Part shown: positions 34,942 through 55,313 of the stretch, in pieces | Layout: every line of letters starts with the position of its first letter | How positions within the stretch are numbered: position 1 is the stretch's first letter | DNA from: Nitrospira sp. | GTDB taxonomy: Bacteria; Nitrospirota; Nitrospiria; SBBL01; JAADHI01 | NCBI GenBank assembly: GCA_027020665.1 | Contig: JALUVJ010000039.1 | Span: 1 to 61,486 of the forward strand | Reading direction: 5' to 3' | Length of the DNA: 61,486 bases | Position numbers and translations under genes: made by a program | Notes under the pieces: model-generated | Told to the model about the DNA's origin: nothing | The model's input: the letters and a program-made list of their open reading frames with translations, nothing else | Database searches by the model: none

Positions 34942-35013
34942 AATCCGAACATCATAATCACTCGACAAGAAAGGGTCAACCGGATAGCGTCCCTATACTG
35001 CTGTAAATTTTAA

Positions 35014-35037: not shown

Positions 35038-35068
35038 GTAAAATTAGGTTTTCGGATCGGTCGCCCCC

Positions 35069-36562: not shown

Positions 36563-37354
36563 TTAACGGTCGTGACAGACTAGGCAAAGTGTGGCGGAAG
36601 GAACTCTGAGAAAAGGACGCACCGTTTCACTGTGCGGATTGTGGCAACTGTCGCATTCAAGCATGCCGCCGGTGGTGCGTACCAGGGAAGATAAGTGTTC
36701 CGAATTGGGAACCGTTTCTACAGGCAGGTCGAGATACTGTGATGTGCCCGATGTCGGCAAAACCAAACCATCGTCCTGACGGTCCGGAAGCGCCCAATAA
36801 CGCAACTGGGTCACGGTGGGGTTCAAGGGTGTGGATTTGCCGTTCGGTTTTCTGGGGTAGGGGATGGAAATCGGGTGATCCACCCGGCTTAAAGGGGGGG
36901 CGCCGCGTTTTCCGGACATGCCGTTAAAAGGCACATCCGCGGCTGCACCGATACGCGGATTACCGACATTGATGCCGTGCATGTCCGTGCCGAGTGCGCC
37001 GTCATGACAGGAGAGGCACACCATTGAAGTCCCGGTGGGGTGATTATAAGGATGTTCACTGCGCGGCAGCGTTTGTATTGCGCGGTAAGGAGAAATCGCA
37101 GAACGATTTTGATCCCAAAGCGGCGGGGGCGTCACCGCTTTTTTTCCTGAAGCCGCTTCTTTTTTGCTCTGCCAGGGAATCGTGTCCGTATGACAGACGG
37201 TGCACGTATTTCCCTCTTTAGCGGTGGGCGCAATGAGATTATGCCCGGTTTGCAAGACCGCTTCCAGGGGCGAGGCGAAGAGTCTTCCCGCTGCGCCGGA
37301 CAACCCGATCAGCATAAAAAAGATCAACCCGGCTTGAAACTTTTGTGTGCTCAT
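36563..37354 (-). CDS. Periplasmic tetrahaem c-type cytochrome (paired-CXXCH type C-terminus)
   Basis: It has a signal peptide and four CXXCH motifs: CTVCH, CLSCH, CDSCH and CLVCH. Its start overlaps the glmM stop (ATGA). Confidence 0.85.
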
Positions 37355-38712
37355 TTTTCAGCCCCTATCTTTTTTCGGACCATCTCCGCCAAGGTTTCAG
37401 CCATTTCCGTAATGACTGTGGCATCTTCGCCTTCGATCATAATCCGGAGCAACAACTCCGTGCCCGAATAGCGCACCAATATCCGGCCGGATCCGCCCAG
37501 CTTTTGCTCGCAATCTGAAATTTTTTGCTGAATTTCAGGGATCTCGGCCAGATCCCGCTTCTCCCGCACACACACATTTTTTAAAACTTGCGGCAAAGGG
37601 GTCATGCAGTCGGTAAGTTCAGAAACAGATTTTCCGGTGCGCGCCATCAAGGCAAGAAACTGAAGTGCGGTGATGAGACCGTCTCCAGTCGTATTATAAT
37701 CTAAAAAGATGAGGTGTCCGGATTGCTCCCCGCCGAGATTATAAGCCCCGTTGAGCATACGTTCAATGACATAACGGTCACCCACCTGCGTGCGCAGCAC
37801 GTGGATCCGCTTCGGATTGAGCGCAAGTTCCACCCCCATATTACTCATTAAAGTCGTCACAAGCGTTTCGCCTTTTAAACGCCGGTCTTCCTGCATGGCC
37901 AGCGCAAAGGTAACGAGCAGCGCGTCGCCGTCCACGATTTCCCCTTTTTCATTCACAAAAATCGTCCGGTCGGCGTCTCCGTCGTGCGCGATGCCGACAT
38001 GGGCCTGATGGGCCACCACGGCCTTTTGCAGGGCCTGCGGGTAGGTCGAACCGCAATCGGCATTGATATTGGTCCCGTTGGGCTGATTGTTAATCGGGGT
38101 TACATCCGCCCCCAGTTCCTTCAGTACCGTCGGTGCGACCTTATACGCCGCGCCGTTTGCGCAGTCCACCACCACTTTCAGGCCGACTAAATCGAGACCC
38201 TTGGGCAAAGAGCGTTTCACGAACTCGATATAGCGTCCCTCAACATCATCGAGTCGAAAGACTTTACCGATTTCTTTTGCAGTCGGACGAATGGCGTCAA
38301 TTTCTCCGGAAAAGAGCAAATCTTCGATCTGGTGTTCGACGTGATCCGGCAATTTAAAACCTTCTTTTGAAAAGAATTTAATGCCGTTATCCTGAAAAGA
38401 GTTGTGTGAAGCAGAAATCATGACGGCGGCATCTACACGAAGGGAACGGGCCATAAAGGCAACGGCGGGTGTCGGCAAAGGCCCGACTAAAATCACATCG
38501 ACGCCCAAGGAGCAAATGCCGGAAGTCAGTGCGGATTCAAGCATGTAGCAGGAAAGACGGGTATCTTTTCCGATAACAATGCGGTGTCGGCCTGCTTTAT
38601 GTTTAAAAATATGGGCGGCGGCGCGGCCCAGTTTCATGGCCGTTTCAACGGTAATCGGTTCGATATTGGCAACGCCCCGAACCCCGTCCGTACCAAACAG
38701 ATTTCGCATCAA
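37351..38712 (-). CDS. glmM: Phosphoglucosamine mutase
   Basis: LFGTDGVRG, the phosphoserine loop [15 protein letters not shown], and GDGDADR. Confidence 0.95.
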
Positions 38713-38730
38713 TGCCCCACAAAAAAATGT

Positions 38731-39573
38731 TTAGTGCCCGTGCGGCTCAGCAGGTGAGCTCACAGTGGCGCGAAGCGCCTTGTCATTGATCGTGATTTTT
38801 GCCTTCTCTTTGAGCAGGTCGATTTCCGAGTTAATCATCATGCCGCGCAAATTCTGAACCTGCGTCGGCGTTAAGGTATCAAATGCCCCCGGATCACGGG
38901 TTTCGACTTTTTGGATGATATGAAAACCAAAGGGGCTTTGCACCGGCCCGCTGATTTCTCCTTCTTTGAGCGCAAAGGCAACCTTTGAAAAAGGCTCCAC
39001 CATGCGGTCTTTGGTAAAAAATCCGAGATCACCGCCTCGTGCTGCGCTGGCCGGGTCAATGGAAACTTCCTTTGCGACAGTCGCAAAATCCGCACCGTCC
39101 GTCAGCTTTTTCTTGACATCCAGTGCTTCTTTTTCCGTCTTCACCAAAACGTGGTTTGCCCGGACTTCCCCGAAATCGGATTGATTTTTTTTGTAGTAGG
39201 CCTTCATTTTGGCATCAGTGATGATATCCCGGTTGATGAGGTTCACCACTTCTCGCACCAAAATGGATTCCAAAAACTCTTTCACCTGATTTTGAATGGC
39301 AGGATCTTTGTCAAGCCCCAAGCGCTGACCTTCCTGATGAAGCACTTCGGTGGCGATGAGCATGTCCAGCAGCTCTTTTTTCATTTCATAAGTCGTAAAA
39401 TCACCTTGCCGTTCATTCGTCAGACGCCGCATCCGTTTTTCAAAAAGCTCTTTTGTAATCGAAACCCCGCCGACATTTGCAAGTTCATCTGCCGGGCCCG
39501 CAAAAAGCAGGTCTCCCCTAGAAAAAAAGAGCGTGGAAACGAGTAACACCACAGCGATTGTTAATTTATACAT
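38731..39573 (-). CDS. Periplasmic parvulin-type peptidyl-prolyl isomerase (SurA/PpiD-like)
   Basis: It has a signal peptide and the PpiC domain ANHVLVKTEKEA...GGDLGFF...FGFHIIQ. Confidence 0.85.
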   Translation of the reverse strand: MYKLTIAVVLLVSTLFFSRGDLLFAGPADELANVGGVSITKELFEKRMRRLTNERQGDFTTYEMKKELLDMLIATEVLHQEGQRLGLDKDPAIQNQVKEFLESILVREVVNLINRDIITDAKMKAYYKKNQSDFGEVRANHVLVKTEKEALDVKKKLTDGADFATVAKEVSIDPASAARGGDLGFFTKDRMVEPFSKVAFALKEGEISGPVQSPFGFHIIQKVETRDPGAFDTLTPTQVQNLRGMMINSEIDLLKEKAKITINDKALRATVSSPAEPHGH

Positions 39574-39718
39574 CTACCACCCTCCAATATTGAACAAATC
39601 AAGCGGTATTCTACCCTCATCCACAATGAAATATCAATGCTTTATCCCGGCATCCTTCGGCAAGGTTCGGGTTAAAACAACAGTTTAAAAAAGGCCTGGT
39701 ATCCCGCCTGAGAAATGC

Positions 39719-39748
39719 TTGACTTCGGGCTGATGCAAACAGTAGGAT
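39719..39748 (+). promoter_or_regulatory. Sigma-70-type promoter candidate for the pgpA-recA block
   Basis: TTGACT (39719-39724), 18 nt, TAGGAT (39743-39748), about 50 nt upstream of the pgpA GTG. Confidence 0.3.
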
Positions 39749-39797
39749 GGGCCCCGCGTTATTCGGGCAATGACGCCATCCCTAAAGAGGCTATTTT

Positions 39798-40265
39798 GTG
39801 AAATGGGCGGTTTGCATTGCAACTTGCGGCGGCATCGGATATTTCCCCCGATTTCCCGGCACGATCGGCAGCATCGCCGGGCTGCTGCTTTTTTTCCCGC
39901 TTCGGCAGATGCCGTTTATCCCTTACATTCTATTTCTCATTGCAGTCTTCACGCTGGGTGTCTGGGCCGCAAATCGGTCCGAAACCTTTTTCAATCGCAA
40001 AGATGCAAGCCACATCGTCATTGATGAAGTCCTGGCCGTCTTCTTGGTCTCCTACTTTCTACCGGCTTCATGGCCTTGGTGGCTTGCAGGGTTGATTGTT
40101 TTTCGCATTTTCGATATCTCAAAACCGCCGCCCATCCGGCGGTTTGAAACACTGTCCGGAGGCTGGGGCGTAATGGTCGATGATGTCGTTGCGGCGCTCT
40201 ACACGCTCGGACTGCTCCATCTGCTCAAGGGGGTCATCGGCGCGGGAGCTGCGGCCGTTGGATGA
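39798..40265 (+). CDS. pgpA: Phosphatidylglycerophosphatase A
   Basis: GTG start with AAAGAGG upstream. GIGYFPRFPGTIGS, FRIFDISKPPP, and GGWGVMVDDVVAALY. Confidence 0.9.
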   Translation: MKWAVCIATCGGIGYFPRFPGTIGSIAGLLLFFPLRQMPFIPYILFLIAVFTLGVWAANRSETFFNRKDASHIVIDEVLAVFLVSYFLPASWPWWLAGLIVFRIFDISKPPPIRRFETLSGGWGVMVDDVVAALYTLGLLHLLKGVIGAGAAAVG

Positions 40266-40761
40266 AATAAATCCGACATATTGTGATCATACACAGGCAC
40301 TCGAAATCGGAGCAGCCCTGCAATCCCGTCATCTGACGCTTGCAGTCGCTGAATCCTGTACGGGGGGACGCATCGCAAGCCAAATCACAGCCGTGCCGGG
40401 TGCCTCCCGCTATTTTGAGTCCGCCTACATTACCTACAGCAACAGCGCCAAAATACGGCTCTTGTCCGTACCTAAGGCACTCATTGAAAAAAAGGGAGCC
40501 GTTTCAAGCGAAGTGGCCCACGCCATGGCCGAGGGGGTGCGCAAACACGCGGGTGCGGACTTGGGGCTTTCTGTTACCGGGATCGCAGGTCCCGGTGGCG
40601 GCAGCCGGAATAAACCGGTCGGACTCGTTTATATTGCCCTATCGGATGAACATGGAACACAGACAACGCAGTTTCTTTTTTCCGGCAATCGCAACACCAT
40701 TCAACGGAAGGCAAGTGACGCGGCCCTAAAAACCCTGCTCATGCATTTAAGAACACCTTAA
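40258..40761 (+). CDS. pncC: Nicotinamide-nucleotide amidohydrolase (CinA C-terminal domain only)
   Basis: LTLAVAESCTGGRIAS, ITYSN, GISVTGIAGPGGG-type motifs, and VYIAL. The start is probably TTG at 40258, overlapping the pgpA stop; the ORF track starts at 40180. Confidence 0.85.
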   Translation: MDEINPTYCDHTQALEIGAALQSRHLTLAVAESCTGGRIASQITAVPGASRYFESAYITYSNSAKIRLLSVPKALIEKKGAVSSEVAHAMAEGVRKHAGADLGLSVTGIAGPGGGSRNKPVGLVYIALSDEHGTQTTQFLFSGNRNTIQRKASDAALKTLLMHLRTP

Positions 40762-41478: not shown

Positions 41479-42522
41479 ATGCCAGAAAAAACCGTAAAAG
41501 AAAATAACAAACAAGGCGCGCTGGAACTCGCGATGTCTCAGATTGAACGCCAGTTCGGCAAGGGTTCCATCATGCGTCTCGGTGCGGACGACGTCGCCAC
41601 AGGCGTGCCCGTTATCCCAACGGGCTCTCTCGGACTCGATATTGCGCTGGGTGTGGGCGGCGTGCCACGCGGTCGCGTCATCGAAATCTTCGGGCCGGAA
41701 TCTTCGGGAAAAACAACACTCACCCTGCACATCATCGCCGAAGCGCAAAAGCTGGGCGGCACGGCCGCCTTTATCGATGCGGAACATGCACTGGATATTC
41801 ACTATGCCCGCCGCCTGGGGGTCAATAGTGATGACTTGTTGATCTCACAGCCGGATACGGGAGAACAGGCGCTTGAAATCGCCGAAACCCTGGTTCGAAG
41901 CGGCGCACTGGATGTGGTCGTCATTGACTCGGTCGCAGCCCTCGTGCCTCGTGCGGAAATCGAAGGGGAGATGGGCGATTCCCACATGGGCTTGCAGGCC
42001 CGGCTCATGTCACAGGCCCTGCGGAAATTGACCGCGGCCATTTCACGCTCCAAAACCTGCGTCATTTTTATCAATCAAATCCGAATGAAAATCGGCGTCA
42101 TGTTCGGCAATCCCGAAACCACTACCGGCGGCAATGCGCTCAAATTTTATGCTTCCGTGCGCATGGATATCCGCCGCATCGAAACCCTCAAAGACGGACA
42201 AGAAGCGATGGGCAACCGTGTCCGGGTCAAGGTTGTGAAAAACAAGGTCTCTCCGCCTTTCCGTAAAGCCGAGTTTGATGTACTCTTTAATGTTGGGATC
42301 TCTAAAACGGGAGAGCTTTTGGATCTGGCCATCGAAAACCGGATTGCCGACCGAAGCGGCGCCTGGTATTCCTATAAGGGACAGCGTCTGGGGCAAGGCC
42401 GGGACAACGCGGTCAAAACATTGACCGAAAACCCGGAAACAGCGGCAGAAATCGAAGCGGCCATCCGCAAAACGGCCGGTCTACCGCCTGAGAAAGAAGA
42501 GAAAAAAACCGAGGGGGCTTGA
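41479..42522 (+). CDS. recA: Recombinase A
   Basis: [10 protein letters not shown], the L1/L2 loops, and [16 protein letters not shown] upstream. Confidence 0.97.
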
Positions 42523-42579: not shown

Positions 42580-43725
42580 ATGAACCTTGATATCTTGTTG
42601 AAGGCATCCATCGAAAACGGCGCATCCGATCTTCATATCAAAGTGGGCGCCCCGCCGATGGCCCGCGTCAACGGCACACTTATCCCCTTGGCGCAATTTC
42701 AAAGGATGAACAAAGAAGATGTTGCCGCTTTGGCCTATTCCGTACTCAGCCCCGCACAACGTGAAATCTTTAAGCAAGACCGGGAAATTGATTTGGCTTA
42801 CAGTGCGGCGGGATTGGGGCGCTTCCGGGTCAGTATCTTCATGCAGCGGGGCACGGTCGGCGCAGTCTTTCGTGTTATCCCCAGCCGGATTTTATCTCTT
42901 CAGGATCTTGTGCTGCCGAAAGCCATCCACAAGCTCTCACAAGAACAACGCGGACTCATCCTGGTGACCGGGACGACCGGCAGCGGGAAATCCACCACAC
43001 TCGCTGCCATGGTCGATATTATCAATATCTCCCGTACGGCCAACATCATCACCATCGAAGATCCTATCGAGTTTCTTCATCGGGACAAAAAAGGTATTGT
43101 AAGTCAACGCGAAATCGGGCAGGACACCGATTCATTCGGCGGGGCGCTGCGTTCCGCCCTGCGGCAAGACCCCGATGTCATCATGGTGGGCGAAATGCGC
43201 GATTTTGAAACCATCAGCACCGCGCTCACCGCCGCAGAAACGGGACATCTGGTTTTGAGTACCTTGCATACCTTGGATGCAACCGAAACCATCAACCGCA
43301 TCGTCTCTGTATTTCCCCCTTATCATCACAGCCAGGTGCGCATGCAGCTCGCCACCGTGCTCAAGGGCATTGTCTCCATGCGTCTCATTCCACGGTCCAA
43401 AGGAGAAGGGCGTGTGCCCGCCGTGGAAATCCTGTTGGGGACACAAACGGTTTGTGAGGCAATTATCGATACGGACAAAACCCGCACGCTCAAGGACATC
43501 ATCGCGGCGGGAAAATCGCAATACGGCATGCAGACCTTTGACCAGTCGATCTACGAACATTACCAAAACGGGATGATTTCTTATGAAGAAGCACTCAAAT
43601 GGACCAGCACGCCGGAGGACTTCGCCCTAAAGGTCAAAGGCATCCAATCCACCAGCGACAGTTGGGAAAACGCACAGCAGGAAAACGGCGGCGGTGAGAC
43701 GGAATTCGAAATCGACCGTTTTTGA
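42580..43725 (+). CDS. pilT: Type IV pilus retraction ATPase, PilT family
   Basis: ASDLHI, Walker A GTTGSGKSTT, the Asp box IITIEDPIEF, Walker B PDVIMVGEMRD, and the His box LVLSTLHT. Confidence 0.88.
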   Translation: MNLDILLKASIENGASDLHIKVGAPPMARVNGTLIPLAQFQRMNKEDVAALAYSVLSPAQREIFKQDREIDLAYSAAGLGRFRVSIFMQRGTVGAVFRVIPSRILSLQDLVLPKAIHKLSQEQRGLILVTGTTGSGKSTTLAAMVDIINISRTANIITIEDPIEFLHRDKKGIVSQREIGQDTDSFGGALRSALRQDPDVIMVGEMRDFETISTALTAAETGHLVLSTLHTLDATETINRIVSVFPPYHHSQVRMQLATVLKGIVSMRLIPRSKGEGRVPAVEILLGTQTVCEAIIDTDKTRTLKDIIAAGKSQYGMQTFDQSIYEHYQNGMISYEEALKWTSTPEDFALKVKGIQSTSDSWENAQQENGGGETEFEIDRF

Positions 43726-44191
43726 GGACACGGTTGCCTCCGCGAAAAAAAACGCCTTTCGATGTCTTTCCCGTCGGGATCACAGCACGCACGAGCTTGC
43801 GCAGAAACTGCACAAAAAAGGATTTTCCAGGCCCATCGTTTTAAAAGTTATTGATGAGCTAACAACCCTGAAGCTGATTGATGACACACGTTTTATTGAA
43901 ACCTGGTCACGCTTCCGCATGACCCATCATCATTTCGGCCCCTTGCGCCTGCGTCAGGAACTGCTTCAAAAAGGTCTCCCTTCAGACGATGTCTCGGCTT
44001 ATATTCAAAGGATTTCAAATACATACCGTCCGGAAAACGAAGTTGAAAAAACGCTTCTCCGGCGATATCCGGATCTCGGGTCACTCAAAGAAAAAAACAC
44101 CTGTCGCAGGGCTTTTGATTTTTTAAAACGAAAAGGCCACGCGTCTGAGGTCATCTTTAAGGTTTTTAAGAAATACGGCTTGCTGAAATAG
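43694..44191 (+). CDS. recX: RecA regulator RecX
   Basis: CLSRRDHSTHELAQKLHKKGF and three helical repeats. The GTG start overlaps the pilT 3' end by 32 nt. Confidence 0.8.
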   Translation: MRRNSKSTVFEDTVASAKKNAFRCLSRRDHSTHELAQKLHKKGFSRPIVLKVIDELTTLKLIDDTRFIETWSRFRMTHHHFGPLRLRQELLQKGLPSDDVSAYIQRISNTYRPENEVEKTLLRRYPDLGSLKEKNTCRRAFDFLKRKGHASEVIFKVFKKYGLLK

Positions 44192-44532
44192 GGAGTCGCT
44201 CTATTCGCCTTCAAGGAAGCGCTGATTAAGTTTGGGGTGAATTTTTCGAGAGATAACATCTTCGGATTCAAGGCGCAACTTGCAGGGAATCGCCCGCTTG
44301 AAAAATCCGTTCAATCATGCGAAAAAGCAATACATGATTTGATTGGCGCTGCCTGAGGCTTGATATTTTTCCTAGGTTCTTGATAATACCTTTTGATTGG
44401 ATATAGAGAAAAGTCATTTATTTTGCTAAAATCGGTGCGGTATTTTCTTCCTTTTCGTATGCCTTGATCAGAGCTGCCTGATTTAACGATACAACAACAA
44501 ACTTTGTTTTTATTGGTACGGAGGAATCAATC

Positions 44533-46893
44533 ATGAATCGTTTGGCGTCAGACATCAAAAATATGAAAACCCACTATGCCGTGGTGGTCATCGGTTCCGG
44601 TTACGGCGGCGGCATCGCCGCTTCGCGGATGGCGCGCGCAGGACAAACGGTGTGCGTACTGGAACGCGGCAAAGAAATGTTGCCGGGAGAATATCCGGAC
44701 ACGGAATTAGAGGCCTCACAGGAGTTTCAAATCGATACGCCGAAAGGCCGCATCGGGTCCGAAACCGATCTTTTTGATATGCGTGTGAATGACGACATCA
44801 ATGTGGTCATCGGCTCCGGGTTGGGTGGGACGTCTTTAATTAATGCAAATGTCGCTGTGCGTGCCGAAGAACGCGTTTTTGAAGATCCGTGCTGGCCGCA
44901 GGCCTTTCGCAATGATTTGAAAACACTTGTAGAAGAAGGTTATCAACATGCGGAGGCCATGCTCAAACCCAACCCTTATCCCGAAGATGCGCCAAGCCTT
45001 CCCAAGCTTACAGCCATTGAAAGATCAGCAATTTGCATGAATCAAAAGACCTATCGGCTTCCGCTCAATGTCACCTTTGAAGGAAGCGCGGGCGTGAACC
45101 ATGTCGGCGTATGGCAAGATGCCTGTAATTATTGCGGCGATTGTGTTTCCGGCTGCAATGTCGGCGCAAAAAACACGACTCTGATGAATTATCTACCCGA
45201 TGCCAAGAACCATGGAGCGGAAATTTACACGCAAGTGGCCGTACGCCGATTGGAGCGGAAAAACGGCCGCTGGTTGGTCCATTATCAAATTCTAAATGCG
45301 GGACGTGAAAAGTTTGAAGCCCCGACCCTTGTTGTTGCGGCGGACAATGTCATTTTGGGCGCAGGATCGCTCGGCTCCACTGAAATTTTATTGCGCTCCA
45401 AAGCGAAGGGGCTTCCGCTTTCCGATCAGCTGGGGGCGCGCTTTAGCGGCAATGCCGATGTCTTGGGTTTTGCTTACAACAATGATTTCGAAGTGAACGC
45501 CATCGGTTTTGGGGATAACAATCCCGAAAAAATGGACCCGGTCGGCCCCTGCATTACGGGCATCATCGACATGCGCAATCAGCCGAACCTGAACGATGGT
45601 TTGGTCATTGAAGAAGGCGTCTTGCCGGGCGCGCTGGCGGGTCTGCTGCCCGCAGCCTTTTCGCTTGCAAGCAAAATGGTGGGCAAAGATACGGACGAAG
45701 GTATTATGGACGGCCTGCGTGAAAACCTGCGTGAAGTCGAAAGCATGGTGCGCGGGGCTTATCACGGTGCGGTGCGCAATACACAAACCTACCTGATTAT
45801 GGCCCACGACGACGGTCAGGGAAAAATGTCGCTTAAGGATGACCGTCTTCGCATTGATTGGCCCGGCGTCGGCACACAGCCTATTTTTGAAACGGCCAAC
45901 AAACGTTTGGAAGAGGCGACCGCTGCGGGCGGGGGCACCTATGTGAAAAATCCGCTCTGGAGTAAAATTGCAAATCACAGCCTGACGACGGTGCATCCCT
46001 TAGGGGGTTGTGTAATGGCTGAGAATGCGCAGGAGGGGGTTGTGAATCACAAGGGACAGGTTTTTTCCGGCCAAAACGGGGATGCGGTTTACGAGGGGCT
46101 TTATGTCTGCGACGGCGCAGTGTTGCCACGTTCGGTGGGCATTAATCCCTTTTTAACAATTTGTGCAGTGGCCGAACGCATCTGCGCGCTTTTGGCAGAA
46201 GATAAAAATTGGGAAATCGACTACACCCTGCCTTCTCAATCCAATGAACCGCGTGTAGAAAAGAAGTTGGGGCTTCAGTTTACCGAAACCATGCGCGGAT
46301 ATTTTTCGACCGAAGAAAAGACCGATTATCAGGAAGCCGCAAAACGGGGAAAGGCTGCCGCTTCACCTTTTAAATTCACGCTCACGGTCGTGATTGATGA
46401 CCTGGATCGGATGATTGCAGATGAAAATCATCAGGGCAATATTATCGGCAGCATGACGGCGCCTGCTTTATCTGATGCCCCCCTGAGTGTTTCCAATGGT
46501 ATTTTTAACTTGTTTGTGGAAAATCCGGAAAAACCGGATGCTTACAAAATGCGCTATCGCATGAACCTGCACGGGAAAGACGGCCAAACCTATTATTTTG
46601 AGGGATTTAAGGATATTCACGATGATCCGGGTTTTGATGTCTGGGAAGATACGACGACTTTGTATATTACCATCTACGAGGGCGAAAATGCGCAAGGGGC
46701 CGTGCTCGGCAAGGGCATTTTAAAAATTTTGCCGATGGATTTCATTACGCAACTCAAGACGGTAAAAGCCTTAAACAGCGCAAATTTCAAAGAGCGGCTG
46801 GAGGCCAAAATACGCTTTGGCAAGTTGTTCGCTGGGGGCGTCTACGACGCCTTTGTTGCGCCGCTTTTAAAAACACCGGAACGCCTTGGCTAA
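44533..46893 (+). CDS. GMC-family flavin oxidoreductase of cholesterol-oxidase type fused to an uncharacterised C-terminal module of about 208 aa
   Basis: YAVVVIGSGYGGGIAASRMA (FAD binding), CNYCGDCVSGCNVGAKN, TVHPLGGC, and LYVCDGAVLPRSVGINP. The C-terminal module (46267-46890) is homologous to the patatin C-terminus. GGAGG SD. Confidence 0.85.
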   Translation: MNRLASDIKNMKTHYAVVVIGSGYGGGIAASRMARAGQTVCVLERGKEMLPGEYPDTELEASQEFQIDTPKGRIGSETDLFDMRVNDDINVVIGSGLGGTSLINANVAVRAEERVFEDPCWPQAFRNDLKTLVEEGYQHAEAMLKPNPYPEDAPSLPKLTAIERSAICMNQKTYRLPLNVTFEGSAGVNHVGVWQDACNYCGDCVSGCNVGAKNTTLMNYLPDAKNHGAEIYTQVAVRRLERKNGRWLVHYQILNAGREKFEAPTLVVAADNVILGAGSLGSTEILLRSKAKGLPLSDQLGARFSGNADVLGFAYNNDFEVNAIGFGDNNPEKMDPVGPCITGIIDMRNQPNLNDGLVIEEGVLPGALAGLLPAAFSLASKMVGKDTDEGIMDGLRENLREVESMVRGAYHGAVRNTQTYLIMAHDDGQGKMSLKDDRLRIDWPGVGTQPIFETANKRLEEATAAGGGTYVKNPLWSKIANHSLTTVHPLGGCVMAENAQEGVVNHKGQVFSGQNGDAVYEGLYVCDGAVLPRSVGINPFLTICAVAERICALLAEDKNWEIDYTLPSQSNEPRVEKKLGLQFTETMRGYFSTEEKTDYQEAAKRGKAAASPFKFTLTVVIDDLDRMIADENHQGNIIGSMTAPALSDAPLSVSNGIFNLFVENPEKPDAYKMRYRMNLHGKDGQTYYFEGFKDIHDDPGFDVWEDTTTLYITIYEGENAQGAVLGKGILKILPMDFITQLKTVKALNSANFKERLEAKIRFGKLFAGGVYDAFVAPLLKTPERLG

Positions 46894-46964
46894 AGAGATG
46901 ATTGCATGGCGCTCGCTTTGTTTTGTAAGGATTGATCCGGCCCATCCATTTTTGGAGAAAACTT

Positions 46965-47996
46965 GTGAAGAAATTCAAGCAACGCGTCATTCCGTTCAGC
47001 GCAGGAGACGGTATGGCGCTGAACGTTATTCATGTGCAGGGGGAAAAAGCACCAACAAAAGGACCCGTGTTACTCGTGCATGGGGCGGGGGTGCGGGCCC
47101 ATCTTTTTATGCCGCCGACGGAAACAACCTTTGTTTCTTATCTTATCGACAACGGTTACGATGTTTGGATGGAAAACTGGCGCGCGTCCATTGATTTTCC
47201 CGCCAACCAATGGACGCTGGATCAAGCCGCGCTTTATGACCATCCCGAAGCCGTCAAGACCGTAGTGAAAGAAACCGGTTGCGATGAAATCAAAGCGGTC
47301 ATTCATTGTCAGGGCTCAACCAGTTTTACCATGTCCGCAATCGCAGGCTTGGTCCCGCAGGTAAAAACCATTGTAAGCAATGCCGTTTCCCTGCATCCGG
47401 TGCTGCCGCTTTGGTCTTGTTTCAAACTGAAGGTCTTCATTCCTCCGACGGAAAAATTCACTCCTTACCTCAATCCGCAATGGGGAATCTCCGCGCCCAC
47501 CCCGATTGCAAAACTGATCTCAATCGTGGTGGAGCTGACCCATCATGAGTGTGACAATTCGGTCTGCAAACAAGTGAGTTTTACTTACGGTTCCGGTTTT
47601 CCCGCGCTTTGGTCGCATGAAAATTTAAGCGAAGAAACGCATGAATGGATCAAGGGAGAATTTGCAGAAGTCTCCATTCCTTTCTTTCGGCAGATCACAG
47701 CCTGCGCCTTCAAAGGCCATTTGATTGCCGTTGAAGGAAAACCGGAGTTGCCCGCCGATTTCACCGCGCAGCCACCCAAAACAGACGCGCGTTTTGCTTT
47801 TTTCGCTGGGGAAGACAACCGCTGCTTTTTACCCAAAAGCCAAATAAAAAGTTTTGAATATTTCGACAAGCTTCGCAAAGACTATCACAGCTTACATGTG
47901 ATACCCCGCTATGGCCATCTCGATCCCTTTTTTGGAAAAAATGCCGCACAAGATGTTTTTCCGCTGATGATTCAGGAATTGGATCGTCCACACTAA
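46965..47996 (+). CDS. Lipase-like alpha/beta-fold hydrolase
   Basis: The GTG at 46965 has GGAGA upstream; the ORF track starts at 46932. PVLLVHGAGV, GYDVWMENWRAS (like acid-lipase GYDVWLGNxRGN), elbow VIHCQGST, and YGHLDPFFG. Confidence 0.8.
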   Translation: MKKFKQRVIPFSAGDGMALNVIHVQGEKAPTKGPVLLVHGAGVRAHLFMPPTETTFVSYLIDNGYDVWMENWRASIDFPANQWTLDQAALYDHPEAVKTVVKETGCDEIKAVIHCQGSTSFTMSAIAGLVPQVKTIVSNAVSLHPVLPLWSCFKLKVFIPPTEKFTPYLNPQWGISAPTPIAKLISIVVELTHHECDNSVCKQVSFTYGSGFPALWSHENLSEETHEWIKGEFAEVSIPFFRQITACAFKGHLIAVEGKPELPADFTAQPPKTDARFAFFAGEDNRCFLPKSQIKSFEYFDKLRKDYHSLHVIPRYGHLDPFFGKNAAQDVFPLMIQELDRPH

Positions 47997-48066
47997 GGAA
48001 GCCCGAATCAAGTCATGCATTATTCTTTCAAGGCAAACATTCAAGCCGGACCTCATCAGAACTTCC
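47997..48066. repeat. 70-nt palindromic intergenic repeat, full copy
   Basis: GGAAGCCCGAATCAAGTCATGCATT...CATCAGAACTTCC. It is identical at 55 of 70 positions in an ungapped alignment with 58971-59040. Confidence 0.8.
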
Positions 48067-48099
48067 CCGCCATCGGATTCGGCAGATAAGGATTAACAC

Positions 48100-48966
48100 A
48101 TGTCACTACCGAAACGACTAAAAAGACAGGAAGGGCGTTACGGCTTGGTCGACGGGATTCCCTTCGATCTGCCCGTGGCCTCCAAAGATTCCCCCGCGCT
48201 CATGGCCGCTTACAGCATTGATTACGAAAAAGCCCGAAAACTCATGCCGGGCCGGGAAGTCCATCCCTTCCGGATTTGGAACAAAGCCGTGCTTTTGATC
48301 ACGGTAATTGATTATCGCGTGACCACCATTGGCAAATATGTGGAATTCAGCATTGGCATCGGTTGCACGCAAGGCCGCAAACCCGCCCCGCCCTTGCTTC
48401 CCCTTATTTTTATGAAATCTTTCGGAACAGGCCAATACGTTTTTGATTTGCCTGTCAGTTCAGAAGTCTCGGTCAAGGGTGGAAAAGGGATTTGGGGCAT
48501 GCCCAAACATCAGGCCAATCTTAATTTTTTAATCGGCGAAAAAACGGTAAGCAGCCAATATGACCTGGACGGCCGGTTCGCGATGAAAATCGAAGTGCAG
48601 CGGAGTAAAAAAGAAAACTTCCCCGTAAATATGAGTGGGGCCAATTATTGCGCCTTTCGCGGCATGTTGATGAAATCCTATGTGTATTTTAAGGGAAAAG
48701 CGGGATTCTGTCTCTTTAAAAAAGGTTCGGCTAAACTGACCATCGGAGATCATCCGAGGCTGAAACCTTTAAAAGATCTTGATATCAGCGAAAATCCGCT
48801 CTTCAGTGGATTTTTCCCAAAAACCGACGGCGTCCTGGACGATCATTTTGAAAACTGGTTTTTGGATTCGGCAGAACTGCCGACGCAAATTCCGGAAGGT
48901 CTGGAAAGCGTGGTCCATTTAACACAAAGTCAGGAATGGCTGGAGCCGCCGAAACCCCTTGATTGA
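48100..48966 (+). CDS. Acetoacetate-decarboxylase-family (beta-cone fold) protein
   Basis: AAGGA SD. ALMAAYSIDYEKA, TTIGKYVEFSIGIG, and GKGIWGMPKHQA resemble ADC-family (PF06314-type) blocks. The assignment is from memory of the family pattern. Confidence 0.6.
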   Translation: MSLPKRLKRQEGRYGLVDGIPFDLPVASKDSPALMAAYSIDYEKARKLMPGREVHPFRIWNKAVLLITVIDYRVTTIGKYVEFSIGIGCTQGRKPAPPLLPLIFMKSFGTGQYVFDLPVSSEVSVKGGKGIWGMPKHQANLNFLIGEKTVSSQYDLDGRFAMKIEVQRSKKENFPVNMSGANYCAFRGMLMKSYVYFKGKAGFCLFKKGSAKLTIGDHPRLKPLKDLDISENPLFSGFFPKTDGVLDDHFENWFLDSAELPTQIPEGLESVVHLTQSQEWLEPPKPLD

Positions 48967-49031
48967 GGCTTCGGCGCGCTTCCACATATCCGCAAATAGA
49001 AAACAGCTGTCTTTTTTGGAGGTTAACATTC

Positions 49032-50567
49032 ATGATAAAACACAGCCCCTACGGCGCGGCAAGCGCGAACGACGCCGGACCGAAACGCGCGCTGATTTTA
49101 GCGGGCGGCGGCATGCGCTTGTCGTATCAGGCGGGCGCAATCCGCGCGTTATTGGAAGCAGAACTGTCCTTCTCTCATGTGGACAGCACTTCAGGCGGCT
49201 CGATGAATCACGCCATGCTCTTCTCCGGGCAAAGTCCCGCCGAAATGTGTGATCGCTGGCGAACCTTAAACCCCAAGGATTTTGTTTCCTTTTTGCCCCT
49301 GGAAAAATACCTGAAGCTGACAGATATTCAAGCTCTGGGCGATGCCGACAACATTACCGGGAAAGTTTTTCCGCACTTGGGCATTGAAGTGGATCGCATC
49401 CGCGCCGTACAGGGAATAGCGGGCACCTTCAATGTCTGTAATTACACAGAAAAGGTGAATGAGGTTATCCCGCACGAAAAAATCGACCGGGATTTTTTAG
49501 TGGCCGGGATGTCGCTTCCCGCCGTCATGCCGCCCGTGCGAAAAGGCGAGACACTTTACCATGATTCTGCTTTTTTGCGGGATGCAAACCTGATGGAAGC
49601 GGTACGGCGCGGCGCCGAAGAACTGTGGTTGATTTGGGTCCTCGGCAATACAAACAATTATAAGGGCGGATTTTTAGGGCTTTATGTCAACATGCTTGAG
49701 GTGAGTGCAAACGGAGCCTTGCATGAAGAATTCGCACAGATTCGGGAAATCAATGCCCGCATTGCAAAAGGAGAAGCGGCCTACGGACAGACAAAACCCA
49801 TCACGCTGCATCTCATCAAACCGGAATATCCCCTGCCGCTGGACCCCGATCTTTATTTGGGGCACATCGACAATGCCAGCCTCATTGACATGGGCTACGC
49901 CGACGCCGAAAAATATTTAAAAACCCAAACAGAATCGGGCACGGCGCTCCGACCCGCATCCACAAAAATGAAAAATCCTAAAATCGGCATTATTTTTCGC
50001 GAAACAATGCGCGGCCGTTTTTCAATGGATGAAACCGATCCCAAGCGCGGTAATAAAAAAGGACAGGATGCAGACACGCTTTTATCAATGCATGCCACCG
50101 TTCACATTGAAGACCTGTACGGCTTTTTACATGATCCGGAACATGCCGGACGGCTCACGGGGCGTATCGATTTTCCGCTATTTGGGGTAAATATTCCCGC
50201 AAAACAGGGAATTTTCAATCTATTTCATCCCTCGGATGATCCCGAAATGTTACTCATGATTTATGAACTTGCTTTTGAAGCGGCAGGTCAATCCTATTAT
50301 CTGGCCGGTCGAAAAGAGGTCCGGGACGATCCCGGATTTGATCTGTGGAAAGATACAAGCACTTTGTTCGTCCGCTTGCATCGCGGGGAGAATGCAAGCG
50401 CACCGGTCGCGGGTGCGGGGATTTTGGGCTTGAGTCTTTCGGCCTTCAAAAGCGTTTTGTCCACCATTCATGTCACACATGCCGCTTCGGAAAAAGAAAA
50501 AACAAAAGCGCTTTATGATTTTGGCCGGTTTTTTACGGGTTCACTCTGGGAATCGTATATGAAATAA
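49032..50567 (+). CDS. Patatin-like phospholipase fused to the same C-terminal module as the GMC oxidoreductase
   Basis: The ATG at 49032 has GGAGG upstream. ALILAGGGMRLSYQAG (oxyanion box), DSTSGGS (nucleophile box), and HDSAF (Asp of the dyad). The C-terminal module is at 49983-50564. Confidence 0.8.
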   Translation: MIKHSPYGAASANDAGPKRALILAGGGMRLSYQAGAIRALLEAELSFSHVDSTSGGSMNHAMLFSGQSPAEMCDRWRTLNPKDFVSFLPLEKYLKLTDIQALGDADNITGKVFPHLGIEVDRIRAVQGIAGTFNVCNYTEKVNEVIPHEKIDRDFLVAGMSLPAVMPPVRKGETLYHDSAFLRDANLMEAVRRGAEELWLIWVLGNTNNYKGGFLGLYVNMLEVSANGALHEEFAQIREINARIAKGEAAYGQTKPITLHLIKPEYPLPLDPDLYLGHIDNASLIDMGYADAEKYLKTQTESGTALRPASTKMKNPKIGIIFRETMRGRFSMDETDPKRGNKKGQDADTLLSMHATVHIEDLYGFLHDPEHAGRLTGRIDFPLFGVNIPAKQGIFNLFHPSDDPEMLLMIYELAFEAAGQSYYLAGRKEVRDDPGFDLWKDTSTLFVRLHRGENASAPVAGAGILGLSLSAFKSVLSTIHVTHAASEKEKTKALYDFGRFFTGSLWESYMK

Positions 50568-50600: not shown

Positions 50601-50867
50601 TTATTGATGCGTTTTTAAAGGTTTGTTCTTTTTTTTAGGCAAGAGTTCTTCTTCGATGTGCCGGATGGTTCCGCGCGGAAGCAATTGCCACGCCCGTTCG
50701 TGCAAATAGTAGAACAGGATTTTCAGCACCGCTTCAATTCCCCCGATCCCCAAAGCCACGCTGGTATCTCCGGTGATGAAATAAGCGATGCCGATTGTTG
50801 TGGCGGAGGCCAGAATCCGCCAACTCACACCCTTTAAAAGACTTCTGACATGTGTTTCCCGCTCCAT
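50601..50867 (-). CDS. DUF2061-type small membrane protein
   Basis: KGVSWRILASATTIGIAYFITGD...LKILFYYLHERAW. Confidence 0.6.
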   Translation of the reverse strand: MERETHVRSLLKGVSWRILASATTIGIAYFITGDTSVALGIGGIEAVLKILFYYLHERAWQLLPRGTIRHIEEELLPKKKNKPLKTHQ

Positions 50868-50909: not shown

Positions 50910-52007
50910 TCAAACGGCTTCTTTTCTGCCGGTCTCGTGCAGGCCCTCGCATAAAAGGCGACGGATTTCCTCTTCATCAATGACATATTCCGTATTACCG
51001 GAATCCGCGGGTAATTCGTACATCGCATCCAATAACAGGGCTTCAAGAATGGCTCGCAGCCCTCTTGCACCCGTGCCCAAAGCAATGGCTTCTTCCGCAA
51101 GCACGACCAAGGCTGCTTTTGAAAAGCGGAGTTTAAGCCCTTCAAGCTCGAATAAGCGTTCATATTGCCTGATAATGGCATGTTTCGGTTCTGTTAAAAT
51201 ACGAACGAGGTCAGAGACCTGAAGGGGATTTAAAGTGGTTGTGATGGGAAGGCGTCCCACAAATTCCGGAATCAGACCGAATTTCAAGAGATCCTCCGGC
51301 AGGATTCTCGCCTGTTGAATTTCCCGGGGTGTTTTTGCGCCGCCGAAGCCGATGACTTTTTCCTGAAGCCGCCGGGCGACGATCTGCTCGATGCCTTCAA
51401 AGGCTCCGCCACAAATAAAAAGAATGCGATCGGTCTTGATCGGAATCAATTTTTCGTGCGGATGTTTGCGGCCTCCGTTCGGTGGAACATGCACCACCGA
51501 TCCTTCGATAATTTTCAAAAGCGCCTGTTGCACCCCTTCTCCGGAGACATCCCGTGTCAGGGAGGGTGATTCATTTTTTCGCCCCACTTTGTCAATTTCG
51601 TCAATATAGACAATGCCTTGTTCACATTGCGCGATATTCCCTTCCGCCGCCTGAAGCAGACGCAGGATGACGTTTTCAACATCTTCTCCAACATATCCCG
51701 ATTGTGTCAGCGTCGTGGCATCCGAAATGGAAAGGGGAACACCCACAATTCTGGCCAGTGTTTCTGCAAAAAGGGTTTTTCCGGTTCCGGTCGGACCGAT
51801 TAAGAGCAAATTCCCTTTTTGTATCTTCAAATGCGCATCGGCTTCGTGCAGGTAAATCCGTTTATAGTGATTGTAAATGGCGACCGAAAGGATTTTTTTT
51901 GCACGTTCCTGCCCGACAATATGTTCATCCAGTCGGGCCTTGATTTCCGGGGGCCTTGGAAGCGGTTCCCGGGGTTTTTCCGCTTTTAACGGTTTCGTAT
52001 CAAACAT
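50910..52007 (-). CDS. ClpX-like AAA+ unfoldase lacking the N-terminal zinc-binding domain
   Basis: AAGGAA SD. It begins at the linker ([20 protein letters not shown]). It has Walker A GPTGTGKT, the pore loop GYVG, the RKH loop GGRKHP, and the IGF loop VIGFGG. There is no CxxC pair anywhere upstream in frame. Confidence 0.9.
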
Positions 52008-53942: not shown

Positions 53943-54494
53943 TCAGTCTTGCATCGATGGCCTAACGCGCTGTTCATACTCTGAAAAACAATAGGAAATT
54001 CCGTTTTCCCAAAAGGTTTCGGAGACGGTCTTGCGCTTAAATCGGCCCTCGAAGTCAGGGAAAAAGGTATCGCACTCAAAGCTTGTGTTGATTTGTGTAA
54101 GGTATAGTTTCTCACAGCAGGACATCTGCAGGGCCGCTTCAAAAACGTGCGCCCCTCCGATGACAAAAATGCCTTCACAATCGGGCGTGTGTCCCAAAAG
54201 AGAAAACCCTGTTTTGAGCGACCGGGCGAAAAGCACGCCGGGAGGAAATCTTTGCTGCGGATTTTGCGTTAAAACAAGGTTGATCCTGTCGGGCAAAGGC
54301 CGAAATTTTTCGGGAATCGAGTCCCAGGTTTTGCGGCCCATCATCACGGCATTTTGTTTTTCCGGGTTGCGTGTTGTTGTGGTTCGTATTTTAAAATGTT
54401 TCATGTCACCCGGCAAATGCCAAGGCAGGCCCCCGCCTTTGCCGATGCCGCGTTGTAAATCAATCGCGGCGATCACGTTGAAAGACAGGCTCAT
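53943..54494 (-). CDS. folA: Dihydrofolate reductase
   Basis: IAAIDLQRGIGKGGGLPWHLPGDMKHF, VMMGRKTWDSIP, and RPLPDRINLVLT. Confidence 0.9.
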   Translation of the reverse strand: MSLSFNVIAAIDLQRGIGKGGGLPWHLPGDMKHFKIRTTTTRNPEKQNAVMMGRKTWDSIPEKFRPLPDRINLVLTQNPQQRFPPGVLFARSLKTGFSLLGHTPDCEGIFVIGGAHVFEAALQMSCCEKLYLTQINTSFECDTFFPDFEGRFKRKTVSETFWENGISYCFSEYEQRVRPSMQD

Positions 54495-54497
54495 TTT

Positions 54498-55313
54498 TTA
54501 GACCGCGATGGGGAATTTAATAAAAGGATGGTGTTGGTAATTGCAAAGCTCAATGTCGTCAAATGTAATCTCAAGCACGGGTTTCTGCACAACCTTGATT
54601 TCCGGCGGTGTTTTAGGTCTGCGCTTGAGCTGTTCTTTTAAACCTGCAACATGGTTATCGTAGATGTGCGCATCCCCCAGGGTATGCGTGAAAACCCCCG
54701 GAATCAAGTTGCATTCGCCTGCAACGAGGGTCATCAGCAAGGCATAACTTGCGATGTTGAAAGGAACCCCCAAAGCGATATCCGCAGAGCGTTGGTAAAG
54801 CTGGCAGTCGAGACGGCCATTGATGACATAAAACTGAAAAAAAGCATGACAAGGCGGCAGCGCCATGCGGTCGAGATCGCCGGCGTTCCAGGCGCTGACA
54901 ATAATGCGACGGGAATCGGGATCGTTTTTGATAAGATCGATAGCATTTTGAATCTGATCCACATGGATTTTTTGGTAGGCCTTTGTTTTTTTGTTCCAGA
55001 CAAATTTTTCCCACTTGCGCCATTGATATCCGTAAATCGGGCCCAGTTCTCCCGCGTCATCAGCCCAGGCATTCCAGATGGGCGTATGACTTTTTAAGTC
55101 TTCGTTGATGTTGGTCGCACCTTTTAAAAACCACAACAGCTCATACACAACGGCCGGAAAGAGTACTTTTTTTGTGGTTAAAAGCGGAAACCCCTGCCGC
55201 AGATCGTACTTGCTTTGACAACCAAAAACCGAGCGCGTCCCCGTTCCCGTCCGGTCGCGTTTTTGTTCGCCGTTCTCAAGAATATGACGAACCAAGTCTA
55301 AATATTGTTTCAC
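54498..55313 (-). CDS. thyA: Thymidylate synthase (ThyA type)
   Basis: [31 protein letters not shown] (catalytic Cys), and DAHIYDNH. Confidence 0.95.

Follow-up and report, generated by a model that had tools for sequence, protein, structure and literature searches.

A four-gene bacterial cluster encoding divergent lipid-type enzymes and the C-terminal domain shared by two of its proteins

Described here is a four-gene cluster located on a 61,486-nucleotide stretch of DNA from Nitrospira sp. (GenBank assembly GCA_027020665.1, contig JALUVJ010000039.1), which is referred to in its entirety as the window. The window is a metagenome contig, and the genomes closest to it are Nitrospirota metagenome-assembled genomes (MAGs) that carry the same four genes with protein identities of 74-87%. 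In order, the genes encode a cholesterol-oxidase-like GMC flavoenzyme, an alpha/beta hydrolase, a protein related to acetoacetate decarboxylase (ADC), and a patatin. An earlier note, prepared from the DNA letters alone, had regarded them as one lipid-type unit, a view borne out by the co-occurrence and fusion of the four families in unrelated genomes. The four enzymes are functionally linked and constitute a real system.

All four open reading frames (ORFs) are read from the forward strand and lie exactly at the coordinates given in that note, and each of the motifs quoted there was found in the translations. The arrangement is as follows.

44192-44532, forward strand: upstream intergenic spacer of 341 base pairs (bp), the likely promoter region, with TTGATA-16-GATAAT at 44360-44387 and GGAGG before the ATG
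44533-46893, forward strand: gene 1, GMC flavoenzyme with the first copy of the shared C-terminal domain, 786 residues
46965-47996, forward strand: gene 2, alpha/beta hydrolase, 343 residues, GTG start
48100-48966, forward strand: gene 3, ADC-like protein, 288 residues
49032-50567, forward strand: gene 4, patatin with the second copy of the shared C-terminal domain, 511 residues
50601-50867, reverse strand: convergent gene for a small DUF2061 protein, which ends 33 bp past the last stop codon of the cluster and bounds its 3' end

The gaps between the genes are 71, 103, and 65 bp in length. Shine-Dalgarno-like sequences (GGAGG, GGAG, AGGA, and GGAGG) precede the starts of genes 1 through 4, respectively, in agreement with the earlier proposal that each gene has its own. 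For gene 2, the GTG codon at position 46965 was preferred over the ATG at 47013 selected by the gene caller because homologues conserve the intervening residues (R-V-x-P-F-x-A-G-D-G). A terminator scan revealed no terminator-like sites in the three intergenic gaps, and the base composition of the cluster matches that of its surroundings. That the four genes form one operon is the best explanation. The terminator-like matches observed between positions 44000 and 51000 were dismissed, all of them falling within coding sequence and being fewer than expected from shuffling. Long antisense ORFs inside the four genes, such as that at 45388-45996 on the reverse strand, were treated as non-coding, given that all of the homology resides in the sense frames. 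The boundaries claimed in the earlier note, namely a promoter-like region upstream and a convergent gene downstream, hold for the 341-bp spacer and its promoter-like match and for the DUF2061 gene; the promoter call itself is a consensus match only, and the promoter scan overall was not above chance, with 9 found versus 6.4 expected from shuffling. Read directly, the N-termini of the four proteins display no visible signal peptide, and the system is therefore taken to be cytoplasmic.

A C-terminal domain common to the flavoenzyme and the patatin

The strongest link within the cluster, which the earlier note had missed, is a C-terminal domain carried by both the GMC and the patatin proteins and referred to here as the C-domain. 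Residues 578-775 of the former are homologous to residues 317-510 of the latter (37% identity, E 7e-37). The two copies are positioned as follows.

46264-46857, forward strand: C-domain copy 1, residues 578-775 of the GMC protein
49980-50561, forward strand: C-domain copy 2, residues 317-510 of the patatin protein, resembling the free-standing form found in other genomes

The domain is characterized by the motifs F-x-E-T-M-x-G, G-x-F-N-L-F, K-x-V-x-D-D-P-G-F-D-x-W-x-D-T-T-T-L-Y, and F-G-x-F-F-x-G. Its conserved polar residues are E9, N83, K117, D121-D122, D126, T131, and T133, and their number suggests that it is more than a greasy anchor. The AlphaFold2 (AF2) model, with a predicted local distance difference test (pLDDT) score of 90.7, consists of approximately nine long β-strands followed by a long C-terminal helix. 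Searches of Pfam gave nothing at E ≤10 for the two copies from the window and scattered chance matches for 48 members of the family, and no match was obtained in NCBIfam. A profile search of the PDB sequences likewise returned nothing at E ≤1. With Foldseek, nothing significant was retrieved from the PDB, the best entries being MppR, lipocalins, DUF3237 barrels, and catalase barrels (E ≥0.02, template-modeling (TM) score <0.35). At most, the model hints at a lipocalin-like or barrel flavor. The match to MppR suggested that the C-domain might be a relative of the ADC-like proteins, and this possibility was rejected on the basis of an hhalign probability of 0.2%.

A profile search of 1.84 billion representative proteins revealed the C-domain in 2569 of them. 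As judged by Pfam and local phmmer, it occurs as a free protein of ~200 residues and in the architectures GMC-C, C-GMC, GMC-C-hydrolase with or without a second hydrolase domain, C-hydrolase, hydrolase-C, patatin-C with or without a second C-domain, ADC-C, and Metallophos-C-hydrolase. All four enzyme families of the cluster are thus represented somewhere among the fusion partners of the C-domain, which include almost nothing else. In other genomes a free-standing C-domain protein is encoded next to the GMC gene. The C-domain is the signature of the system and was previously uncatalogued. That several enzymes of a pathway can each be fused to an accessory domain for lipid handling is familiar from SCP2 and from PLAT/C2. 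Like SCP2 in the peroxisomal β-oxidation enzymes and PLAT/C2 in lipases and lipoxygenases, the C-domain is non-catalytic-looking, β-rich, 120-200 residues in length, and either free or fused to different enzymes, which would share one lipid as substrate. Neither in sequence nor in fold could a relationship to SCP2, PLAT, or C2 be detected, however, and the analogy would be functional only.

The co-occurrence of the four genes was addressed by scanning species-representative genomes with an alignment of the C-domain, which yielded at least 582 confirmed stretches. The counts given here refer to the best 78 loci of these, in which the ORFs within flanks of up to 10 kb were searched with the domains of the window. 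As can be seen from these counts, the GMC-C fusion is present in 76 of the 78 loci and a hydrolase in 65. In 22 loci, the GMC enzyme, the C-domain, and the hydrolase are combined into one protein of ~1150 residues, and a C-domain-hydrolase fusion is observed in 10. The ADC-like gene is found in 16 loci, the patatin gene in 15, and all four genes in 14. These 14 loci belong to five phyla, namely Nitrospirota, Cyanobacteriota (Nostoc), Acidobacteriota, Actinomycetota, and Bacteroidota. Their flanks are unrelated, and no other gene family is common to more than 18 loci.

The order and the fusion state of the genes vary from genome to genome. In Uliginosibacterium sp. H3 the order is hydrolase, ADC-like, small ORF, patatin-C, and GMC, and in Streptomyces viridifaciens pKVP1 it is GMC-C, metallophosphoesterase-like, hydrolase, and ADC-like, with generic annotation throughout. 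A metagenome contig (L088) encodes, in succession, a hydrolase, an ADC-C fusion, a GMC enzyme, and a patatin, which are the same four genes with the C-domain positioned on the ADC-like protein instead. In the Nitrospirota locus L033, the tri-fusion occupies the chromosomal site, beside DUF2061 and folA, that in the window and in locus L007 is taken by the four-gene form. Chance adjacency is excluded because the four genes recur across phyla and fuse. Indeed, the notion that four unrelated genes simply came to lie side by side, which the individual ribosome-binding sites might suggest, is hardly credible in light of the recurrence in five phyla and the fusions between every pair through the shared domain, and it is effectively refuted.

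Predicted active sites of the four enzymes

The four family labels proposed in the earlier note hold at the superfamily level in Pfam, NCBIfam, and PDB searches. The residues of interest are located as follows.

45124-45156, forward strand: Cys198-x2-Cys201-x2-Cys204-x3-Cys208 of gene 1 (CNYCGDCVSGC), candidate iron-sulfur (Fe-S) site inside the GMC domain
45994-45996, forward strand: predicted catalytic His488 of gene 1, aligned with HPLGGC of Streptomyces ChoA
46144-46146, forward strand: predicted catalytic Asn538 of gene 1, aligned with GVNPF of ChoA
47307-47309, forward strand: predicted nucleophile Cys115 of gene 2 in H-C-Q-G, a cysteine in 65 of 65 homologues
47541-47567, forward strand: invariant cap motif of gene 2, H193-H194-E195-C196...C201 (H-H-E-C-x-N-x-x-C)
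47916-47918, forward strand: His318 of gene 2, with Asp320 in Y-G-H-L-D, both invariant
48505-48507, forward strand: invariant Lys136 of gene 3 in G-K-G-I-W-G-M-P-K-H, with Glu82 and His137 also invariant
49191-49193, forward strand: Ser54 of gene 4, which also carries the GGGMR oxyanion box
49563-49565, forward strand: Asp178 of gene 4

The GMC portion of gene 1 extends from residue 1 to approximately residue 575 and matches the Pfam families GMC_oxred_N (E 2e-17) and GMC_oxred_C (E 8e-12). Its best NCBIfam match is to the cholesterol oxidase equivalog NF058674, with a score of 157.5 bits that falls far below the cut-off of 850; the match comprises two stretches and is confined to the N-terminal half. 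In the PDB, the best matches are the cholesterol oxidases from Streptomyces and Brevibacterium (E ~1e-20). With ChoA, a class I cholesterol oxidase of the GMC fold (PDB 1B4V), gene 1 has in common the FAD-binding GxGxxG motif, the GMC N- and C-domains, and the histidine and asparagine of the HPLGGC and GxNPF motifs, which align; both residues are invariant in 69 of 69 GMC homologues. The alignment with ChoA covers only residues 16-47, 78-316, and 434-551. Unlike ChoA, the gene 1 protein contains an invariant CX2CX2CX3C insert, lacks a signal peptide, and possesses the additional 200-residue C-terminal domain. The segment CNYCGDCVSGC aligns to a cysteine-free stretch of the Streptomyces enzyme. 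The earlier note had listed CNYCGDCVSGCNVGAKN among the hallmarks of the GMC/cholesterol-oxidase family, an assignment that must be withdrawn: the sequence is absent from Streptomyces ChoA and displays the cysteine spacing of an Fe-S site.

Cys198, Cys201, Cys204, and Cys208 are all invariant in the 69 GMC proteins bearing a C-domain, and Cys198, Cys204, and Cys208 are invariant also in 11 of 11 neighboring GMC paralogues that lack it. In the Burkholderia flavin adenine dinucleotide (FAD) glucose dehydrogenase (BcGDH), Cys212, Cys218, and Cys222 hold a 3Fe-4S cluster through which electrons pass from the FAD to a cytochrome c subunit (PMC6719666). The C-x5-C-x3-C spacing of Cys198, Cys204, and Cys208 is equal to that of the BcGDH cysteines. 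From this pattern we infer that gene 1 may encode a dehydrogenase with a candidate Fe-S relay rather than an O2-dependent oxidase. Also counting for an Fe-S site is the presence, right next to the GMC gene of several other genomes, of genes for cytochrome c or RoxA-like dihaem proteins. The α-subunit of BcGDH (PDB 6A2U) and the gene 1 protein have in common the GMC scaffold, the His/Asn pair, and a cysteine pattern of that spacing near residue 200. Their sequence similarity, however, is limited to the N-terminal FAD motif, gene 1 has a fourth cysteine, and its substrate-binding part resembles that of cholesterol oxidase rather than that of the sugar dehydrogenases. In addition, genes for the hitchhiker and multihaem subunits of BcGDH are found neither in the cluster nor next to it.

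RoxA-like dihaem cytochromes c are encoded at L073 11946-13814, L006 9717-11585, L025 13319-14986, and L090 12356-15407, and such genes adjoin those for the GMC enzyme and the hydrolase in Pseudomonas sp. FEN, Nostocales, and others (match to PDB 4b2n, E 4e-13). The protein from L073 displays hydrophobic N-terminal segments. It is possible that these cytochromes serve as electron acceptors for the GMC enzyme with the Fe-S motif.

The gene 2 protein matches Abhydrolase_1 in Pfam with an E-value of 1.6e-4, which is under the Pfam cut-off, and its only sequence relatives in the PDB are the gastric and lysosomal acid lipases (gastric lipase, E 1e-5). Its AF2 model has a pLDDT of 83.8. When this model was submitted to Foldseek, the entries 1hlg, 1k8q, and 6v7n were retrieved with TM scores of 0.71-0.77 and E-values of 1e-12 to 1e-14, and other hydrolases scored ~0.5. 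The predicted structure thus has an acid-lipase topology, with an alpha/beta-hydrolase core and a cap. The best of the fold matches are mammalian, namely gastric lipase (1HLG) and lysosomal acid lipase/cholesteryl ester hydrolase (6V7N), with TM scores of 0.74-0.77 and E-values of 1e-14; the N-terminal sequence of gene 2 matches these enzymes, and its histidine lies in a Y-x-H-L-D motif, as does that of the acid lipases. The earlier description of a lipase-like hydrolase therefore stands with respect to the fold and fails with respect to the nucleophile, which is an invariant cysteine in H-C-x-G as opposed to the serine in the G-H-S-Q-G of the lipases. Such a nucleophile would imply a thioester acyl-enzyme, and transfer as well as hydrolysis would then be possible. 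Further differences include the invariant Asn285, which lies roughly at the position expected for the acid, the invariant HHEC...C motif of the cap, and the cytoplasmic, bacterial nature of the protein. His218 and His226 are likewise invariant, and the cap motif may bind a metal. Note that the model is least confident around residues 201-220, just after this motif.

Given such matches, the cluster might be supposed to function in the catabolism of steryl esters and sterols, with the hydrolase acting as a cholesteryl-ester hydrolase, the GMC enzyme as a cholesterol oxidase yielding the 4-en-3-one, and the remaining two proteins as accessories. Among curated models and solved structures alike, gene 1 is indeed matched best by cholesterol oxidases, and the top fold matches of gene 2 include lysosomal acid lipase/cholesteryl ester hydrolase. 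In 22 loci both activities reside in one fused protein, and the ene-reductase gene next to one of the loci (L090) would suit an enone product. This assignment nevertheless appears unlikely. The score of gene 1 against the cholesterol-oxidase equivalog is 157 bits versus 850, its cysteine-rich motif does not occur in ChoA, the nucleophile of gene 2 is a cysteine rather than a serine, and signal peptides are missing from all four proteins. Furthermore, no recurrent genes for sterol uptake or steroid-ring degradation were observed in 84 neighborhoods, and the host phyla are not known to use sterols.

The gene 3 protein matches the Pfam ADC family (PF06314) with an E-value of 3e-14 and a score of 53.4 bits versus a cut-off of 29.8. 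Its residues 27-167 correspond to positions 19-140 of the 238-position profile, a region that covers Lys136. In keeping with the ADC superfamily, as represented by Clostridium ADC, MppR, and Sbi00515, it contains an invariant lysine in W-G-x-P-K and an invariant glutamate, positions that we take to be those of the Schiff-base lysine and its glutamate partner in ADC. By its position in the motif, Lys136 is a candidate for the Schiff-base lysine. The ADC-fold label in the earlier note is sustained by the Pfam match, but the protein is far removed from true acetoacetate decarboxylases: sequence searches, those with a profile included, detect no solved member of the superfamily. No NCBIfam model was matched, a search of the PDB with the single sequence gave no match, and a 32-sequence profile retrieved only chance matches to viral nucleoproteins (E ~0.35). 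The protein differs from ADC also in the residue after Lys136, which is a histidine rather than a lysine, in being ~45 residues longer, and in always being encoded beside the cysteine hydrolase. For genes 2 and 3 alike, ~3000 homologues were found, and these are 63-87% identical across phyla.

The combination of a cysteine nucleophile with an ADC-like protein brings to mind the mobilization of polyhydroxyalkanoates (PHAs), in which the hydrolase would be the depolymerase, the GMC enzyme would oxidize 3-hydroxybutyrate or a 3-hydroxyalkanoate, and the ADC-like enzyme would decarboxylate acetoacetate or a 3-ketoalkanoate. PHA synthases and intracellular depolymerases employ a cysteine nucleophile, gene 3 belongs to the ADC family, and gene 2 has weak NCBIfam matches to two PHA synthase models (E 5e-4 and 1e-3). 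PHA mobilization would, moreover, be a special case of the 3-hydroxyacyl chemistry proposed below. The scores of those matches are 18-19 bits, however, against cut-offs of 365 and 622, and the fold of gene 2 is well removed from those of PhaC (9knj, TM 0.56) and PhaZ (8ynv, TM 0.55) and nearer to the acid lipases (TM 0.75). There are no recurrent pha genes in the neighborhoods, the ADC-like protein is remote from true ADCs, and the nearest relatives of the GMC domain are enzymes acting on bulky hydrophobic alcohols. A role in PHA mobilization is accordingly considered quite unlikely.

The patatin portion of gene 4 extends from residue 1 to approximately residue 312 and precedes C-domain copy 2. 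It matches the Pfam family PF01734 with an E-value of 5e-17 and a score of 63.2 bits versus a cut-off of 27.7. All 15 homologues retain Gly25-27, Ser54, and Asp178, and 14 of the 15 retain Arg29 as well. With the patatin-like phospholipases (patatin, PlpD, and ExoU) the protein has in common the Pfam profile, the GGGxR box, the serine of x-T-S-G-G, and the aspartate of the dyad. Its similarity to PDB entries is marginal (E 0.06), and the shared C-domain takes the place of the POTRA/barrel domain of PlpD or the membrane-localization domain of ExoU. Patatin-like phospholipases are effectors in several defense systems, and the cluster could by extension be an anti-phage defense or toxin module with the patatin as its membrane-degrading effector. 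Such a function is very improbable: the four proteins gave no significant match in PADLOC-DB 2.0, the only one listed being a 14-bit match to a dinucleotide-binding fold; sequence conservation across phyla is very high; sensor, nuclease, and cyclase partners are missing; and the cluster resides in a housekeeping context and not in a defense island.

Recurrent partners and surrounding genes

Several other genes recur with the cluster in other genomes. A metallophosphoesterase-like or PhoD-like protein is encoded inside the cluster in 18 loci, examples being L003 8611-10095, L087 6039-7880, L073 13825-15069, and L089 2434-4209. In one protein (P0247) it is fused to the C-domain; the Metallophos match is weak. 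The 613-residue protein from Streptomyces and the 494-residue protein from L003 gave no NCBIfam or PDB match. This partner might act on a phosphorylated head group. In 11 loci, including L037 13071-13457, L044 12820-13239, and L085 9882-10274, the ADC-like and patatin genes are separated by a conserved ORF of 130-140 residues. Its carriers are Acidobacteriota, Nostoc, and Uliginosibacterium, it is absent from the window and from the closest relative of the window, and it has no Pfam or NCBIfam match. DUF6765, the RoxA-like cytochrome c, and a cytochrome P450 recur mainly in Nostocales. A search of the window revealed no metallophosphoesterase-like protein, no 130-140 residue ORF, no DUF6765, and no further copies of the C-domain.

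Partners of this type raise the issue of whether these are tailoring genes for specialized metabolites that take no part in primary lipid turnover. In Nostocales and a few other loci, the GMC/C-domain genes are indeed accompanied by those for a P450, a RoxA-like cytochrome c, a metallo-β-lactamase-fold protein, and DUF6765. A tailoring function is decidedly improbable, however, in that core genes for polyketide synthases, non-ribosomal peptide synthetases, or terpene formation do not recur, the hydrolase and the ADC-like protein are too well conserved across phyla to resemble fast-evolving tailoring enzymes, and the neighbors of the cluster in the window include recA, recX, thyA, and folA.

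Upstream of the cluster, recA (41479-42522) and recX (43694-44191) are on the forward strand. These genes are usually neighbors; here a gene for a PilT-like T2SSE ATPase (42580-43725) is inserted between them, and the recX ORF as listed, with a GTG start, overlaps its end by 32 bases. Further upstream, at 34533-40761, Pfam identifies an FGE-sulfatase, a GGDEF response regulator, a multihaem c-type cytochrome (Paired_CXXCH_1), a phosphoglucomutase, a SurA-like peptidyl-prolyl isomerase, PgpA (phosphatidylglycerophosphatase A), and CinA. PgpA is the sole lipid-related gene among these neighbors and has no other tie to the cluster.

Downstream, the DUF2061 gene is convergent with the cluster in three Nitrospirota genomes (window 50601-50867 on the reverse strand, L007 14349-14561, and L033 10518-10730), and it may represent mere synteny or a fifth partner. 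It is followed at 50910-52007 on the reverse strand by a gene for a ClpX-like AAA+ protein of only 365 residues (AAA_2 and ClpB_D2-small), the N-terminus of which lacks the zinc-finger cysteines and which is therefore regarded as a short ClpX paralogue. No counterpart of it was seen in L007, a close relative, over the 20.6 kb of that locus. The genes folA (dihydrofolate reductase, 53943-54494) and thyA lie together at 53943-55300 on the reverse strand, and a gene for a large HEAT-repeat protein is positioned further on. No tRNA or tmRNA genes and no Rfam families at the gathering score were found in the 61-kb window.

A possible pathway and its implications

On the basis of the chemistry of the four families, it is proposed that the cluster encodes a cytoplasmic multi-enzyme system acting on an ester-bound hydroxylated lipid, a general scheme that is regarded as somewhat likelier to be right than wrong. 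In the first step, the patatin (Ser54/Asp178) and the acid-lipase-fold hydrolase, the latter via a thioester intermediate on Cys115, would cleave acyl esters. The flavoenzyme (His488/Asn538) would then convert a secondary alcohol into a ketone, either on the moiety already released or while it is still bound, with the electrons probably passing through an Fe-S cluster (Cys198, Cys201, Cys204, and Cys208) to an acceptor other than O2. In the third step, Lys136 of the ADC-like enzyme would form a Schiff base with the carbonyl group thus generated, and a carbon-carbon bond would be broken. The C-domain would serve as a common module for substrate binding or assembly, holding the enzymes together on one lipid or within one complex.

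A more specific version of this scheme, in which a 3-hydroxyacyl ester would give rise, without coenzyme A (CoA), first to a 3-keto acid and then to a methyl ketone and CO2, is tentative and, as it stands, doubtful. An ester-bound 3-hydroxyacyl group was chosen because it is the simplest substrate that would need all three steps. The genes for the hydrolase and the ADC-like protein are always adjacent and in that order, and in L090 a gene for an ene-reductase of the Old Yellow Enzyme family follows the pair. Both of these observations count for ketone chemistry and fit the 3-hydroxyacyl-to-methyl-ketone version. The methylketone synthases of tomato are MKS2, a hot-dog 3-ketoacyl thioesterase, and MKS1, an alpha/beta hydrolase with the function of a 3-keto-acid decarboxylase. 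The proposed logic would be the same, with release of a 3-keto acid followed by decarboxylation to the methyl ketone. The protein families differ, and the likeness is one of logic, with no homology claimed.

The scheme can be extended to a metabolon composed of all four enzymes and the domain, in which ester-bound 3-hydroxyacyl or other secondary-alcohol lipid groups would be converted to ketones and CO2 by a CoA-independent route. Two acyl hydrolases would function together with a flavin dehydrogenase of the Fe-S type, connected to the respiratory chain, and with a new clade of Schiff-base decarboxylases. The C-domain, shuffled by evolution among all four, would assemble the enzymes or feed them substrate. 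This extension is speculative, and it is put forward as one possibility.

Several observations weigh against the proposed scheme. In Nitrosomonas aestuarii and in a Burkholderiales MAG, genes for the hydrolase, the ADC-like protein, and the patatin-C fusion occur with no GMC gene within 8-9 kb, and thus the other three do not strictly require oxidation by the GMC enzyme, at least in cis. The lineages with the tri-fusion have neither the ADC-like nor the patatin gene nearby, and L090 has GMC, hydrolase, and ADC-like genes with no C-domain within 8 kb. The metallophosphoesterase-like protein, the small ORF, DUF6765, the RoxA-like protein, and the P450 are recurrent partners that the scheme leaves unexplained. 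The substrate is a proposal only, drawn from family chemistry as are the three steps. The Fe-S site is deduced from the cysteine pattern rather than from alignment or spectroscopy, and gene 3 is too remote from the solved ADCs for an alignment at the level of residues, its Lys136 being assigned by motif position. Finally, the C-domain may function in binding, in assembly, or in catalysis, and its many invariant polar residues could even indicate an active site. As for the substrates suggested in the earlier note, namely sterols, hopanoids, and polyhydroxybutyrate/acetoacetate, nothing found here favors any of the three.

The suggestion that the system is undescribed was upheld, in that no curated NCBIfam, Pfam, or PADLOC model covers the set and the library searched contained no paper describing it. 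The literature was searched with combinations of cholesterol oxidase, GMC oxidoreductase, patatin, acetoacetate decarboxylase, DUF6765, and ADC-like superfamily, and none of the papers retrieved was on the cluster. Public annotations of the genes are generic and read "GMC oxidoreductase", "alpha/beta hydrolase", "acetoacetate decarboxylase family protein", or "cholesterol oxidase". In their catalytic parts, the four proteins are divergent representatives of superfamilies already known. What appears to be undescribed is the combination, along with the branch of the acid lipases with a cysteine nucleophile, the cholesterol-oxidase-like branch with an Fe-S motif, and the shared domain.

Carriers of the system include Nostoc, Streptomyces, Nitrosomonas, Pseudomonas, Acidobacteriota, and Nitrospirota, and among the individual strains are Chlorogloeopsis fritschii PCC 6912, Streptomyces viridifaciens DSM 40239, Uliginosibacterium sp. 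H3, and Pseudomonas sp. FEN, the last with the tri-fusion. Several of these can be cultured and are genetically tractable, so that the hypothesis is directly testable. If the proposals presented here are correct, a new domain family would be defined and a widespread mis-annotation as "cholesterol oxidase" would be corrected. The acid-lipase fold would gain a branch with a cysteine nucleophile, the cholesterol-oxidase-like GMC enzymes would gain a branch bearing an Fe-S cluster, and an unrecognized pathway of lipid turnover or ketone formation would come to light. Should the metabolon version prove to be true, the cluster would represent a widespread and hitherto unrecognized branch of lipid turnover in bacteria, from which bacterial methyl ketones might originate.

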